Source: Vicinamibacterales bacterium (GTDB lineage: Bacteria; Acidobacteriota; Vicinamibacteria; Vicinamibacterales; UBA8438). From it: a stretch of 64,000 nt of DNA. The DNA is taken from assembly GCA_965207615.1 (NCBI GenBank), contig CBDBMZ010000003.1, positions 139,854 to 203,853 on the forward strand, written 5' to 3'. How positions within the stretch are numbered: the stretch's first letter is position 1; each line of letters opens with the position of its first letter. Of the stretch, positions 20,006-25,240 are shown in pieces. The notes beneath the pieces are model-generated. The model was not told where the DNA came from. It ran no database searches and saw nothing but the letters and a program-made list of their open reading frames with translations. The translations under genes were made by a program, and so were the position numbers.

Positions 20006-20243
20006 ACAGCAACTACCAGCGGATCCGTCGTCCTCTCGGGCAACGCCCGCCGGATGCTGACCCAGGGCGGGCCGGACAGGGCCCGCGAGCGACGCGGGCC
20101 GCACTGTATCCGATCCGTCCGCCGCGGCCCGCGTGCGGGTCTGTCGGCCCGCCGCTTCGGGGCGTGCCGCTCCGTCCGCCCCTGCTTCAACGCCGTGCCA
20201 GGTCGAGAGGTTGGCTTGCACGCACAGTCGTCCCATCCGCCCC

Positions 20244-20496
20244 CGGAGCGGGGTTGAAGGGCGACCCCGCTCCGAACCCCGGCAGCCGCCGGCGGGGCGG
20301 ACGCCGCCCCCGGCCGGACCTGGAACCGCGGTCCGGCCTCAATCCTGCGGCCGTGAAGGGCGACGGCCGCGGGATGGGCGGCGAACCCCTGCCCTTGCGA
20401 CGGCGCACCCGGCCGGCCTGAAGACCGGGCCGGCCAGACGGGTGCGCCTCTCGCAGATTCCGGGTCAAGGACGGCGGTGGCGAAGAGCGACCGCCG
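20244..20496. repeat. Array of 5 GC-rich stem-loops with different stems but a shared loop, TGAAG(G/A)(G/C)CG
   Basis: H1 20244-20274 cggagcggggt/TGAAGGGCG/accccgctccg. H1b 20313-20337, loop TGGAACCGC. H2 20347-20370, loop (T)GAAGGGCG. H3 20411-20435, loop TGAAGACCG. H4 20472-20496, loop GGCGAAGAGCG. A weaker sixth lies near 20632-20649. Confidence 0.7.
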
Positions 20497-20809
20497 CCGC
20501 TGAACGCCCGGGGCGACGAATCTCCGCTTTCCACCTTGACGGCGCCGGCAAAAACGCGGCTTCGCCGCAGGCCGGCACTTCCTCGCCACCACCACCGCCG
20601 TACCCGACGAGAGAACCGCTCTCTCAGGCCGGCCGGCCTGAACGCCGGCGCCGAAAACCATCGGCTGGTCGATTAGCCGCCCCGGGCAGCGGTCCCCTGC
20701 GGGGCTCCCTGACTCCGGAATCGCGGGCAGGGGTCCTCCGGCGCGACGTGTGCGCCCGAGCGCGGGTCGGCATGAGGCCGGACGCGACTCGCCGCAGGAG
20801 GAGTGAACG

Positions 20810-21559
20810 ATGACCAGCACCCGCGTCCGCAACATGGGGAGGGACCGGTTCCGCGACGGCGACGGGTCCGTCGAACGGCCGAGCCGACAGGGGGATCTGT
20901 TTCCCGAGGACCGGCCGATACGAGTCGGCTCCGAGATCGTCGTGCGCTCGATCGACAGCGGCGGCTCGACCATCCGCGCCCTGCGGGTGACCGCGCAGCT
21001 GCGCCTGCAGGGCTCGGCGCTGGCCGCGGCGCTGGCGAGCCCGGCCGTGAGCTCGGCCCTCGCCGACGTGTCGTATCGCACCGGCGCCGGCCACACGACG
21101 GGCCTCTCGGTGGTCTACCAGCAGGTCGAGCCGCTGACCACGGTCGTCCGCGAGTCGGCCGTGAGCGCCGGGCAGGAGTTCGAGGTCACGTGGCGGGGCG
21201 CCGACGGCCTCCTCGACCAGATGCCGGACCCCGAGCCCATCGACGGCAGTCCGACGCGCGCGGCCGTCGACTGGCACGAGCTGGCGAAGCACGCTCCAGA
21301 CGTCGACGACGAGCGGTCGATGCCGGCCCTCGCCGACCGGAAGGTCCTGCGCCGGCGCGGCCGCGTGACGGTCAGGCGCGGGTTCCTGCGCCCGCCGATG
21401 TCGACCGAGGCCGTCGCGCGCATGGTCGAGCTTCGCGCCCAGGGCCTCGGCTTCAAGCGTATCGCGCGGGCGGTCGGCTGCGCGCCCATCACCGTGTCCC
21501 GCTATCTGCGCAGCTTCGAGGAGGAATGGAATGGACGCCTCCCGCCCTCTGATTGGTAG
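20810..21559 (+). CDS. Hypothetical protein with a C-terminal HTH (resolvase/sigma-like)
   Basis: AGGAGG RBS. The C-terminus reads STEAVARMVELRAQGLGFKRIARAVGCAPITVSRYLR. I do not recognise the ~170-aa N-terminal part. Confidence 0.65.
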   Translation: MTSTRVRNMGRDRFRDGDGSVERPSRQGDLFPEDRPIRVGSEIVVRSIDSGGSTIRALRVTAQLRLQGSALAAALASPAVSSALADVSYRTGAGHTTGLSVVYQQVEPLTTVVRESAVSAGQEFEVTWRGADGLLDQMPDPEPIDGSPTRAAVDWHELAKHAPDVDDERSMPALADRKVLRRRGRVTVRRGFLRPPMSTEAVARMVELRAQGLGFKRIARAVGCAPITVSRYLRSFEEEWNGRLPPSDW

Positions 21560-21595
21560 CGGCAACATGAAGGGGACCCCCTGAGCACTCGGAAG

Positions 21596-21630
21596 CCGCG
21601 CTCTCCTGGCGATGAGCCAGGAGAGCGCGG
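21596..21630 (+). terminator. Perfect 14-bp stem-loop 37 nt downstream of the HTH gene (no U-tract)
   Basis: ccgcgctctcctgg-cgatgag-ccaggagagcgcgg. Confidence 0.4.
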
Positions 21631-21873
21631 AGGTGAGTCAGGATGAACCGGTGGGCCGAGAGCACGCGACCGACATCAGGGCGAGCACAGATAGAGACTC
21701 ACGCTCCTGGCGCCGGTGCCGCGCCACGCCGCCCTTCGGCCGGCGTGGCGGTTGTCAGGCGGGCCGGCCCGCTGCAACGCGGCCTCGGTCGAGCCCGCCG
21801 ACGCTCGATGTCGTGAACGTCCGGGGGCCGAGCTGTCTGTCACCGGTCCGTTACGTAACGGTGAGGAGTAGTC

Positions 21874-22164
21874 GTGGCGTTGACGAACGCGGAGCGGCAG
21901 GCGCGCTACCGGGAGCGGCGACAGGCCGCCGAGCCCCGGATCCGGTATCGCCGGCCGGCGGACCGGCGGTCGCGGCCACAGCAGTGGGACGGCGCGGTCC
22001 GGACGCTCCTGGCACTTCAGGACCAGTATCGGGCGTGGCAGGACGCGTTGCCTGCATCCCTCGCCGGGTCCGCGACCGCGGCGTTGCTCGAGCAGGTCTG
22101 CGAGCTCGATCTGTCGGTCCTGGAGGCAGTCGAGCTTCCCAGGGGGTTCGGGCGTGACCGCTGA
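21874..22164 (+). CDS. Small conserved MGE-associated protein, function unknown
   Basis: GTG start with a GAGGAG RBS. The N-terminus LTNAERQARYRERR and the C-terminus ..ELPRGFGRD resemble small proteins I have seen next to recombinases on plasmids and transposons. I have no family name for them. Confidence 0.55.
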   Translation: MALTNAERQARYRERRQAAEPRIRYRRPADRRSRPQQWDGAVRTLLALQDQYRAWQDALPASLAGSATAALLEQVCELDLSVLEAVELPRGFGRDR

Positions 22165-22494
22165 ACCGCCGGCAACAAGCTTCCGCTTGGTGGCTACGAC
22201 CCGGCGCTGTCGGGCCCATCAGCATGACCGTGTGCTCGCCGGCGTCAAGCCGCGTCGCTTCGCTCCGCCCCCGCTTCGCGGGGCTGACGGCCTTGACGCC
22301 GGCTGCGCGCACGGTCCCAGGCTGGTCTGCCCGACAGCCCCACGGAACGCTCAGCGAGGAGGGCCCGGAATCTGATGTGTTGACGGAGAACCTGGGGGGG
22401 CCTTTCACGGTGAAGGTGGACCCCCCGGGCCGACGGCATCTAAAGTGCCCAAGGGGGAAGCGCAAGCTCTTCCCAGGCAACCGGGAGGTCCAAG

Positions 22495-23520
22495 ATGAAG
22501 AATAGCAGAACGGTCGTCGGCGTGGACACGGCGAAGCGGGTGTTTCAGTTGCACTGGGTCGACCTCGAGACCGGCGAGATGGTGGACAGGCGGTTGAGCC
22601 GTGGGAAGTTCCTGGAGCACTTCGCCAATCGGGCGGCATGCCTGGTAGGCCTGGAAGCCTGTGGCGGGTCGCAGCACTGGGCGCGCCGGCTCCGCGAGTT
22701 GGGCCACGAGGTCCGTATGGTGCCGGCGAAGATGGTGCGGCCGTTCGTGAGTGGCAACAAGAACGACGCGGCTGATGCGCGGGCGATCTGGACGGCGGTT
22801 CAGCAGCCCGGCGTCAAGACGGTGGCGGTCAAGAGCGAGGAGCAGCAGGGGGTGCTGGCGCTGCATCGGATGCGGCAGCAACTCGTGAAGTTCCGCACGG
22901 CGCAGATCAACGGCCTGCGGGGCCTGTTGGCCGAGTACGGCGAGGTGATGCCGCGCGGCCGCACGGGAATGCGGCGGGACATGGCCGCGGCGCTTGCCCG
23001 GGTCTCGGAGCAGCTGCCGGCCCTGGTGGTCGAGACGTTGCGAGAGCAGTGGGCACGCGTGTCGCAGTTGGATGCGGAGGTCGGGGCGATCGAGCGGCGA
23101 CTGGCGGTGTGGCACCGGAGCAGCGAGGCGAGCCGGCGGATTGCGGCGATCCCGGGTGTCGGCGTGCTGAGCGCGACCGCGGCGGTGGCGGCGATGGGCG
23201 ACCCGTCCGCGTTCCGGTCCGGTCGCGAGTTTGCCGCGTGGCTGGGACTGGTGCCCCGCCACAGCGGCACGGGGGGGAAGGTGCGCATGCTCGGCATCTC
23301 GAAGCGGGGAGACAGGTACCTGCGCACTCTGCTGATCCACGGCGCCCGCTCGGCGCTCACCCACGCCAAGACCCCGTCGACCTGGCAGCTCCAGCTGGCC
23401 AGACGTCGTCCGCCGAATGTGGCGGCCGTGGCGCTGGCGAACAAGACAGCGCGCACGATCTGGGCCTTGCTGGCCCATGACCGGGAGTACGATCCGAACT
23501 TTGCTGTCCAGTCCGCCTGA
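22495..23520 (+). CDS. IS110-family DEDD transposase/recombinase
   Basis: VVGVDTAKRVFQLH.., LEACGGSQHWARRLRELGHEVRMVPAKMVRPFVSGNKNDAADARAI, IPGVGVLSATA, GLVPRHSGTGGKVRMLGISKRGDRYLRTLLIHGAR, ALANKTARTIWALL. It is collinear with the IS4321/IS5075 transposase as I recall it. Confidence 0.9.
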   Translation: MKNSRTVVGVDTAKRVFQLHWVDLETGEMVDRRLSRGKFLEHFANRAACLVGLEACGGSQHWARRLRELGHEVRMVPAKMVRPFVSGNKNDAADARAIWTAVQQPGVKTVAVKSEEQQGVLALHRMRQQLVKFRTAQINGLRGLLAEYGEVMPRGRTGMRRDMAAALARVSEQLPALVVETLREQWARVSQLDAEVGAIERRLAVWHRSSEASRRIAAIPGVGVLSATAAVAAMGDPSAFRSGREFAAWLGLVPRHSGTGGKVRMLGISKRGDRYLRTLLIHGARSALTHAKTPSTWQLQLARRRPPNVAAVALANKTARTIWALLAHDREYDPNFAVQSA

Positions 23521-23885
23521 TGTTGGGCAGCGCAGGAGCGTGAACCACGAATCGGAGGAGGTGGCCGCCGAAGGTTGCGCAAGGCAACGACAAGGTGTGA
23601 TGGCAAACAGGTCAGACCGCGACCCGCCAAGCCTGGACCGGCCCTCAAGGGGAAACACCCTACAGGAGGAATGAGGCGCGGGTCGGCTGATTCCATCGGG
23701 GCCAGCAGGAGTCGATCCTGCACGAACAGGCCGGATATAGAGCTGCAACCTGTTCCCAGGCACACCGAATCGAGCCTTGCCTAGCGGGAGGCGTCCATAT
23801 AGAGGGTCGATGACGGTTTCCGCGACGTGGCGCTTCACGTCCGGCGATCGGGTCGGCCGAGCCGTGTAGGATCCCCCCGTACAGT
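23521..23885 (+). ncRNA. Candidate IS110-family guide (bridge/seek) RNA in the 3' non-coding tail
   Basis: No credible ORF. Several local stems (gaacagg..cctgttc 23724-23756; gacgtg..cacgtc 23823-23840). Two AT-rich ATATAGAG octamers sit 62 nt apart in otherwise GC-rich sequence. The position matches the IS1111-subgroup arrangement. Confidence 0.3.
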
Positions 23886-24218
23886 GACACGCCCCGGCAC
23901 CCATGCCGGGGCGTGGATTCCCAGGTCGGCCCGTCCGAACGCTTGTGCAGGCAGGACGACGGGCTGACCTTCCAAGCGGGCGCGATAATGCCCGAACGGT
24001 CGAAGCTTACCCGCTCGTCGAATCCGCGTCAACGGATACCGATCAGCGCCCGGGACGGCGCGGCCCGAGGCCGCGCGTTAGTGACGGTCTCTTGCTTTGC
24101 CTTCCGGAGCTGATACGCCAACTGACGGCGCGTCTCGATCGGCACCCCGACGAGCGAACGTACGCACCTCGTCGAGCAGTGTGCTCAGTTCCGCAATTTC
24201 GGCCCACCCCAAGAGAGT

Positions 24219-24247
24219 TTGACATCCTGCGGGCAGGCCAGTAATCT
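24219..24247 (+). promoter_or_regulatory. Sigma70-like promoter: TTGACA, 17-nt spacer, TAATCT
   Basis: TTGACA at 24219-24224, a 17-nt spacer, TAATCT at 24242-24247. The ATG at 24257 is only 9 nt after the -10 element, which implies a leaderless or near-leaderless mRNA. Confidence 0.5.
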
Positions 24248-24256
24248 CCATGACCA

Positions 24257-24544
24257 ATGAGTGACATCGCACAGGCAATTGCTGACCGCCAAAGTGAAAT
24301 AGACCGCCTCCAGGCCGAGATCAAGGCGTTGACCGACGTCGAGCAGATGCTTGGAGCGTCCGCACCGACGGCACGCTCTTCGCCGCGGCGCTCCTCGCGG
24401 AAGAAGTCCGCCGTCGCCGAGAGCGAACCCGAGGCCAAGCCAAAACGGAAGCGCCGGTCCATGACGGCCAAGGAGAAGAAGGCGGTATCGGAGCGCATGA
24501 CCGCCTACTGGGCGGAGCGGAGGAAGAAGGCCACCAAGAAGTAG
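24257..24544 (+). CDS. Small basic coiled-coil protein (Lys/Arg-rich C-terminus), function unknown
   Basis: The N-terminal coiled coil (IADRQSEIDRLQAEIKALTDVEQ) is followed by ..KPKRKRRSMTAKEKKAVSERMTAYWAERRKKATKK. A good promoter lies upstream. Confidence 0.55.
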   Translation: MSDIAQAIADRQSEIDRLQAEIKALTDVEQMLGASAPTARSSPRRSSRKKSAVAESEPEAKPKRKRRSMTAKEKKAVSERMTAYWAERRKKATKK

Positions 24545-25240
24545 TGTGCTTGCGCCGAGGGTGGCGGGGCAGCCCGGTCGCCGGACGCGCGGCAACTGCC
24601 CCGACGATTTCGCGGGCTTTGCCGCCTGCCCCTGGGAATCTGACGCCGATCGACCGATACATCCGGCATGCGAAAACCGACCCGACAGGCCAGGCTGATG
24701 GACGCGCTGCTCGCGGTTGAAGAAGCCCGCCCGACTGCGCTTCCTCCCCCCAAGCTCGGCATTGTGCCCGGCGGCACCGTGGACGCCGTGCGGCGCCTGC
24801 TCGCAGAGCCTACCCCGGAGTTGAGCCCGCTTCACGCGGTCGGGTCCGGGTCCGTCCGCATCGGCTGCCCGGCCCACCCGAGCCATCCAGGATCGACCCG
24901 CTCTACGCCGTCCGGGTAGGTGACAACGGCCAAGCCCCCACGTATCGCCGTCGCCGTCCCGGTGCGGCCGGACAAGTCCCGCACCCTCACACGCCGCCAT
25001 CGCCAGCCTCGCGAATCAACCGCCGCAGAACTTCACCGTCCACCACCCTCCCTCTCCCTTGTGGTCGACTCCCTCGGCCGCGGCCGCCTCGGGGCGCACC
25101 CGCGGCTCCGGGGTCACCGCCGGTTGTAGCGCGGACCGTGCGCACCGGCGTAGCCGCTTCTCGTGCACCCCTCGAGAACCGGTCGGCTTGGCACTGCGGC
25201 ATCGCGGCCGATACCTGCGGGGCCGCGGGACCCAAGGATG

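Follow-up and report, generated by a model that had tools for sequence, protein, structure and literature searches.

Positions 21526-23801 of a 64,000-nucleotide stretch of DNA from a Vicinamibacterales bacterium (phylum Acidobacteriota; GenBank assembly GCA_965207615.1, contig CBDBMZ010000003.1, positions 139,854 to 203,853 of the forward strand; hereafter the window) very probably constitute an insertion sequence (IS) of the IS1111 group, consisting of about 1.45 kb of IS and an 828-bp foreign insert in its leader, with a 3′ non-coding region that carries a bridge/seek RNA gene of about 180 nt (23572-23752). This reading is carried by the ends of the element, an empty site, covariation in the fold of the RNA, and the correspondence between guide segments in the RNA and the DNA that flanks the element. 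An earlier reading of the window, made from the letters alone (the sequence-only reading), had proposed an IS1111-subgroup element whose 3′ tail was a candidate guide (bridge/seek) RNA. Both proposals are upheld here and the borders of the element are redrawn.

We place the ends at 21526 and 23801, with a core dinucleotide GA on each side and no target duplication, for three reasons: 21531-21543 and 23786-23798 form a perfect 13-bp pair of subterminal inverted repeats; in an empty site of a related genome (locus L020) window position 21525 meets 23802 directly, the two sides having the 2 nt GA in common; and a contig from a DNA run carries the identical joint (21523 to 23802, overlap 2 nt). 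The empty site reads ...GAGGAG-GA-GGGTCG..., and the window has GA on either side of the inserted DNA; insertion is site-specific and leaves no target duplication, the 2-nt core alone being common to the empty and the filled site. Both arms of the 13-bp repeat vary together among relatives through compensatory changes, and the terminal extensions beyond the repeats measure 7 nt on the left, counting the core (GA plus 5 nt), and 3 nt on the right. Our first estimates of the ends (~22414 and 23781-23805) were based on the second copy of the element in this genome, which is 82% identical, and on those found in related genomes. Collecting other copies, the check that the sequence-only reading had proposed for defining exact ends, gave 21526-23801 once multicopy relatives and the empty site were taken together. 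In multicopy relatives identity begins ~135-146 nt before the start codon and ceases ~280-290 nt past the stop codon, with the 13-bp inverted repeat a few bases inside each tip.

These ends alter the anatomy of the element on both sides. The 3′ non-coding region measures 281 nt (23521-23801; 275-294 nt in relatives) and not the 365 nt, to ~23885, read from the letters; a tail reaching ~23885 is ruled out, as the sequence from 23802 onward is contiguous with 21525 in the empty site. The left end, as fixed by the repeats and the empty site, lies about 870 bp further left than the border that had been drawn near 22394, and the leader, put earlier at ~100 nt, is ~135 nt long and split by the insert at 21582-22409. 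The target halves are accordingly 21515-21525 and 23802-23812 rather than the flanks (22370-22393 and 23878-23900) that had been suggested for testing the loops of the RNA. In intact relatives the longer non-coding side is the one downstream of the transposase gene (a 281-nt tail in the window against a leader of ~135 nt in these relatives), and the leader in the window exceeds the tail only through its insert. The tail is poor in open reading frames (ORFs) and structured.

The transposase gene (22495-23520, plus strand) is an intact ORF of 341 amino acids with a DEDD/RuvC-like N-terminal domain and an IS110-family C-terminal domain (Pfam PF01548, E 1e-12, and PF02371, E 7e-22, both over the curated cut-offs). 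Its translation contains GLVPRHSGTG, an instance of the C-terminal motif GL-P----S/TG that is described for IS1111 elements (PMC11187229). Alignment with the IS5075 transposase over residues 7-333 gave 35.4% identity, in keeping with the collinearity with IS4321/IS5075 noticed earlier. Full-length relatives occur at up to 95% identity in Vicinamibacterales assemblies, the closest plasmid-borne relatives, all unnamed, belong to Paraburkholderia, Ralstonia and Bradyrhizobium and show 66-69% identity, and the runs that contain the sequence are sponge metagenomes. The domains, the motif, the subterminal repeats, whose 13 bp lie within the 7-17 bp expected in the group, and the downstream non-coding region all fit the IS1111 subgroup.

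To describe the RNA we aligned the last 233 nt of the tail across 47 relatives, folded the alignment with RNAalifold, and built a covariance model (R1) from 44 relatives in an alignment that left out the window and its two nearest kin. R1 found a single match in the window, at 23572-23752 (180.3 bits, E 2e-40, model positions 1-178), and four matches in the whole genome, one each in this and the second copy of the element and two weak ones in distant relatives. The consensus fold has a closing helix and two arms, one of them a long helix that opens into an internal loop with a hairpin at its tip, the other a small hairpin. In the window-free alignment 98.2% of cells were paired, and 15 pairs changed on both sides, as compared with 7.5 +/- 1.5 in shuffles (none of 500 reached 15) and 3-4 in slid controls. 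Of the seven predicted helices, five keep base pairs through compensatory changes; the pairs that changed on both sides include 7 of the 12 in helix P3/P3b and all four of hairpin P4. The single-sequence fold of the window has a minimum free energy (MFE) of -72.2 kcal/mol (z -2.6). A covarying fold is thus conserved across relatives, where the sequence-only reading had asked for a two-loop fold conserved across copies. A helix first drawn by eye, GCCUG with CAGGC, crosses P3 and was replaced by the covarying P3b.

Four segments of the RNA match the element's own junctions, and they are unpaired in the consensus fold except for the 3′ half of the fourth. We refer to them as the right target guide (RTG), the left target guide (LTG), the left donor guide (LDG) and the right donor guide (RDG); judged by their matches, the first three are clear and the RDG is probable. 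The LTG shares a run of 10 nt with the top strand at the left junction, and it fits left target and core at 7/7 positions. The reverse complement of the RTG agrees with a paralogous site in the same genome (G000:C3:4182829) at 10/11 positions, and a sister element in another genome has an RTG that fits its own site at 10/11. The same correspondence holds across relatives, for which we compared guides and targets in a table of 75 loci by permutation tests over 42 lineages with 5000 shuffled pairings. The mean exact match of RTG to right target was 6.9 nt for cognate and 3.6 nt for non-cognate pairs, and the corresponding means for LTG and left target were 6.3 and 2.5 nt; in both tests no permutation out of 5000 reached the observed value. 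The loops of the RNA, which the sequence-only reading expected to reveal the preferred target, do match the insertion site as well as the element's own junctions.

The donor side shows a similar correspondence. The LDG octamer is identical to 23797-23804, and among relatives the LDG agrees with the right-end variant, ATATA or ATACA, in 20/20 distinct combinations; in 19 of the 20, LTG, LDG and left junction have the same core, either GA or AA. The guide segments alternate between sense and antisense relative to the flanks, and the two target guides overlap at the core. A third ATATAGAG, at 6356-63 of the window, was set aside as a chance-level occurrence, since it lacks an inverted repeat and its surroundings differ from the right end at three positions.

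IS621 and ISEc11 suggest, by analogy, how the element might work. The RNA, which we infer is made and is bound by the transposase, would fold into the closing helix, the target-binding arm and the small hairpin arm, the internal loop of the target arm presenting the RTG on its 5′ and the LTG on its 3′ side. The DEDD transposase together with the RNA would then align the donor, formed by the joined right and left ends, with the target AGGAG-GA-GGGCCGGT, and strands would be exchanged at the GA core without duplication. In one sponge metatranscriptome, contigs from RNA runs lie over 23454-23746 and leave 22616-23367 uncovered, which gives a weak hint of expression.

Several findings weigh against this reading. 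The RTG in the window fits the site that the element occupies at only 8/11 positions, 5 of them contiguous. The RDG candidate covaries in part only, and its 3′ half (23693-98) has a predicted partner in 23598-603 (helix P2), a pairing that shows one compensatory change of its own. A search of 21500-25000 with Rfam 15, at E up to 10, returned chance hits on the hairpin outside the element only and none in the tail, and a scan of 21400-24000 for promoters and terminators found none, including no sigma-70-like promoter. The leader is broken 56 nt from the left tip, which may sever the transposase gene from a junction promoter. Finally, the RNA-run contigs, being those of a single study at 90% likeness or more, could derive from related copies or from DNA, and we do not accept them as proof of expression; contigs of relatives can also map to the tail because it is the most conserved part of the element.

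We considered whether the RNA guides the choice of target only, that is, whether it is a seekRNA in the narrow sense, with the ends recognized by the transposase through the subterminal repeats and the matches at 23689-97 and 23735-42 arising as by-products. The strong conservation and covariation of the 13-bp repeats make recognition of the ends at the protein/DNA level plausible, Siddiquee et al. report only target-matching segments in the short seekRNA, and the RDG candidate, with its poor covariation and its overlap with a predicted helix, adds to the case. However, the LDG follows the right-end variant in every combination, with its core in step with that of the LTG, and it lies in a multiloop, the place to which Durrant et al. 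assign the donor-binding nucleotides of many IS1111 elements. We consider a role confined to the target unlikely. That the tail is conserved as DNA, for instance as transposase-binding or other cis sites, and yields no functional RNA is highly improbable. The lack of promoter and terminator consensus sequences in the scanned region would suit such a tail, but compensatory changes preserve pairs in most of the predicted helices, the guide segments alternate in sense and antisense as they do in known bridge RNAs, RNA-library contigs lie over the region, and the homologous region of ISEc11 works in trans as RNA. We therefore retain the interpretation of the tail as a bridge/seek RNA gene; Table 1 gives the coordinates of its parts and of the features around it.

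Table 1 Features of the IS1111-group element and of the DNA around it, in window coordinates.
Feature	Coordinates	Strand	Basis or description
Left core dinucleotide GA, end of left target half	21524..21525	+	Empty site L020; DNA contig joint
IS left end, part 1: 5-nt extension (21526-30), left inverted repeat (IRL, 21531-43), first 38 nt of leader	21526..21581	+	IRL motif covarying with the right inverted repeat (IRR); aligns with intact left ends of relatives
IS21-family right-end fragment, non-coding, 828 bp	21582..22409	+	Genomic recurrence; istB-adjacent in full copy; missing from intact family members
Left palindrome of the sequence-only reading, a chimeric junction	22394..22426		Homology of each half
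IS left end, part 2: resumed leader to start codon	22410..22494	+	Collinear with relatives from 22410/22414 on
Transposase gene, 341 aa	22495..23520	+	Pfam; full-length relatives
IS 3′ non-coding region, right end, 281 nt	23521..23801	+	Stop codon to IRR plus 3 nt
Bridge/seek RNA core; closing helix P1 23573-78 with 23745-50	23572..23752	+	R1 match, covariation, MFE
Target-binding arm: helix P3/P3b (23620-34 with 23674-85), internal loop, hairpin P4 (23649-61)	23620..23685	+	Covariation
Predicted RTG	23636..23646	+	5′ side of target loop; complementary to top strand of core and right target
Predicted LTG	23664..23673	+	3′ side of loop; 5 nt of left target and core GA (23664-70), then conserved AUG
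Probable RDG	23689..23697	+	Contains complement of first 7 nt of IS left end (21526-21532)
Predicted LDG	23735..23742	+	Multiloop; last 5 nt of IS right end and core GA (23735-41), then G
Right subterminal repeat (23786-98) and 3-nt extension (23799-801)	23786..23801	+	Perfect 13-bp inverted repeat with 21531-43; compensatory changes
Right core GA and right target half, host DNA	23802..23812	+	Continuous with 21525 in empty site L020 and paralogs
Right hairpin of the sequence-only reading, in 3′ end of target repeat, 87 nt outside the IS	23888..23915		Recurs in repeat copies

The DNA into which the element is inserted is itself repeated. A target repeat of ~1.5 kb, represented in the window by 20046-21525 and by 23802 to ~23986, has at least 10 other copies in this genome at 88-94% identity. 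Its ORF ends in a helix-turn-helix (HTH) domain and is followed by a GC-rich hairpin, and the position of the IS is the stop-codon region of that ORF. A Pfam search of the ORFs of the repeat found no transposase domain; the repeat may be an IS or a gene family. The perfect 12-bp stem with a 4-nt loop that had been noticed beyond the right end is present as described; it is no edge of the IS, since it belongs to the target repeat and recurs in other copies of it (L004, L009, L013 and L016). Because of the two RTG fits at 10/11, one to the paralogous copy of the repeat and one of the sister element to its own site, we conclude that the preferred target is a conserved spot in the repeat family, of which this copy of the element occupies a slightly off-consensus member. 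A search of the element's own genome for the predicted 16-nt target, at up to three mismatches, gave 129/153 hits, and the reversed control gave 120/151, which amounts to no enrichment. All sites had at least two mismatches, and four of those with two or three fall in copies of the target repeat.

The locus is a three-level nest of mobile DNA, the innermost level of which is the insert in the leader. Where ~40 nt separate the left repeat from a conserved leader hairpin in intact relatives, the window has 828 bp (21582-22409) that are missing from intact members of the family. Part of this insert (21660-21946) recurs in at least 18 copies in this genome, in a full copy the recurrent part stands directly after an istB gene (PF01695, E 8e-75), and the right part of the insert matches ends that, uninterrupted in relatives, continue for 36 bp more. 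For these reasons, namely the genomic recurrence, the adjacency to istB and the longer right ends elsewhere, we identify the insert as a truncated right-end fragment of an IS21-family element. Pfam searches of the ORFs of the insert and of the target repeat returned nothing but the C-terminal HTH in 20810-21556. The 33-nt imperfect palindrome at 22394-22426, which the sequence-only reading took for the left border, does exist. As a border it is ruled out, because it is the joint of insert and leader, 22394-22409 being homologous to IS21-type right ends elsewhere and 22410-22426 being the resumed leader of the IS. The insert is flanked by imperfect direct repeats of 15-17 bp (21567-81 and 22410-26), for which no ordinary IS21 duplication accounts. 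One copy of the IS21-type right end elsewhere (L003, ~1410-1500) adjoins the 3′ end of what appears, judged by eye, to be a tRNA gene.

The split leader raises the question of whether the copy in the window is an immobile relic that has a real RNA gene and moves passively inside copies of the host repeat, a reading that we regard as quite possible, if somewhat short of an even chance. In one related genome three copies of the element have long common flanks on both sides of the IS, which indicates that the composite spread there along with the surrounding repeat, and both the separation of the left tip from the gene by 828 bp and the imperfect RTG fit to the occupied site are in keeping with a relic. 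On the other hand, the transposase gene, both inverted repeats and every helix of the RNA are intact in this copy. Moreover, a sister IS in a related genome (L019, 754-3154) carries a larger insert at the same position of the leader, including an N-terminal fragment of IstB (PF01695, E 9e-11), and stands at a different site that fits its own LTG at 7/7 positions for left target and core, and over 10 nt with the conserved AUG. Its presence at another site that suits its own guide suggests that it moved when the insert was already in place; either an insert-bearing IS moved or IS21-type elements have repeatedly hit the leader. The element in the window, with its split leader, may still be mobile.

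Other members of the family were also recognized. The second copy in this genome (L002, 1450-3443; G000:C3, ~5050720-5052713), which is 82% identical and has the core GG, contains different guides that fit its own flanks, and ~560 bp of extra DNA lie between its RNA gene and its right inverted repeat. The two weak R1 hits (36.5 bits; G000:C3:2967090-2967272 and 6951058-6951240, loci L114 and L115) adjoin genes for distant IS110-family transposases and are probably further IS1111-type elements with guide RNAs of their own. On an Escherichia fergusonii plasmid (NZ_AP028845.1; L110, 747-2043) we found a deleted, unannotated IS of the same family, with 57% protein identity and an identical RNA layout, whose LTG fits its left flank over 11 nt. 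We did not assume this element to be ISEc11, as its flanks fail to match the published ISEc11 target.

The arrangement of the element agrees with what is known of the IS1111 group. The guide RNA lies 3′ of the gene in IS1111 elements and 5′ of it in IS110 elements (PMC11208160, PMC11187229), a rule that the sequence-only reading had stated correctly; IS1111 elements have the RNA in the right end, long subterminal repeats and, in many cases, a multiloop that contains the donor-binding nucleotides (Durrant et al. 2024, PMC11208160), and in IS1111 seekRNAs the top-strand guide precedes the one for the bottom strand (Siddiquee et al. 2024, PMC11187229). Like ISEc11, ISKpn4, ISPa11 and ISPst6 (PMC11187229), the element encodes a DEDD transposase in the range of 330-350 amino acids with the GL-P----S/TG motif, and it shares with IS1111 seekRNA elements the long subterminal repeats, extensions of 7 nt on the left (counting the core) and 3 nt on the right, a long downstream non-coding region, a top-strand guide 5′ of the bottom-strand guide with the two overlapping at the insertion point, and the absence of target duplication. 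A 7-nt left extension beyond the repeat is also reported for ISEc11 (PMC11187229), which at 1443 bp is close in size to the element without its insert (~1.44 kb). It differs from those elements in its target and in the 828-bp foreign fragment in its leader; unlike the seekRNAs of Siddiquee et al., its RNA also has evident donor-matching segments. Transposase identity to IS5075, a named element of the IS1111 family, is low (35%). The closest plasmid-borne relatives, which are unnamed, reach 57-69%.

As in IS621 (PMC11208160; Hiraizumi et al. 2024), target and donor guides appear in unpaired loops of one RNA, the half-sites are read on different strands and the partner is a DEDD recombinase. Unlike in IS621, the RNA lies in the right end rather than the left, the order of the guides is reversed, with RTG before LTG, the donor guide occupies a multiloop where IS621 has a simple internal loop, the subterminal repeats are long (13 bp against 2-3 bp), and the core, CT in IS621, is GA here and AA or GG in relatives. 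With IS4321/IS5075 the element shares a collinear transposase, membership of the IS1111 group, subterminal repeats and insertion at one fixed position in the conserved sequence of another mobile element, although they are distant relatives and target the 38-bp terminal repeat of Tn21-family transposons, which is unrelated to the multicopy ORF whose 3′ end serves as target here. There is no departure from the known mechanism: the kind of element is already described (Durrant 2024; Siddiquee 2024), and the member is new.

The insertion sites of relatives (L030-L109) show a pattern of their own. Among 64 unique sites a Shine-Dalgarno-like 4-mer is present in the left target in 63%, against a background of 6.5%, and an ATG lies 6-8 nt past the start of the core in 80%. 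Of 72 unique sites whose right flank extends for 400 nt or more, 59 have an ATG within the first 18 nt, and 31 of these 59 ATGs open an ORF of at least 100 codons, as compared with 30% of control ATGs. Whether the clade to which the element belongs is specialized for translation-initiation regions is, on this evidence, evenly balanced. If it is, the invariant bases beside the guide loops would read the constant parts of such regions and the variable guide bases would choose the gene, the IS would separate genes from their ribosome-binding sites in a programmable manner, and the element's own subclade would have left the translation-start pattern to target the stop-codon region of a repeat.

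Taken together, our analysis corrects the anatomy of the locus and provides a well-resolved natural example of what is very probably an IS1111-type bridge/seek RNA from a sponge-associated member of the Acidobacteriota (Vicinamibacterales), in which three guide segments stand out clearly and a fourth is a candidate, all of them mapped to the base. It also yields 42 related guide/target pairs, and these natural pairs show which positions of the RNA are programmable, the use of GA, AA or GG as core, and a guide order reversed with respect to IS621. Such information is of use in engineering IS1111-type recombinases and in annotating these elements, whose ends are often put in the wrong place.

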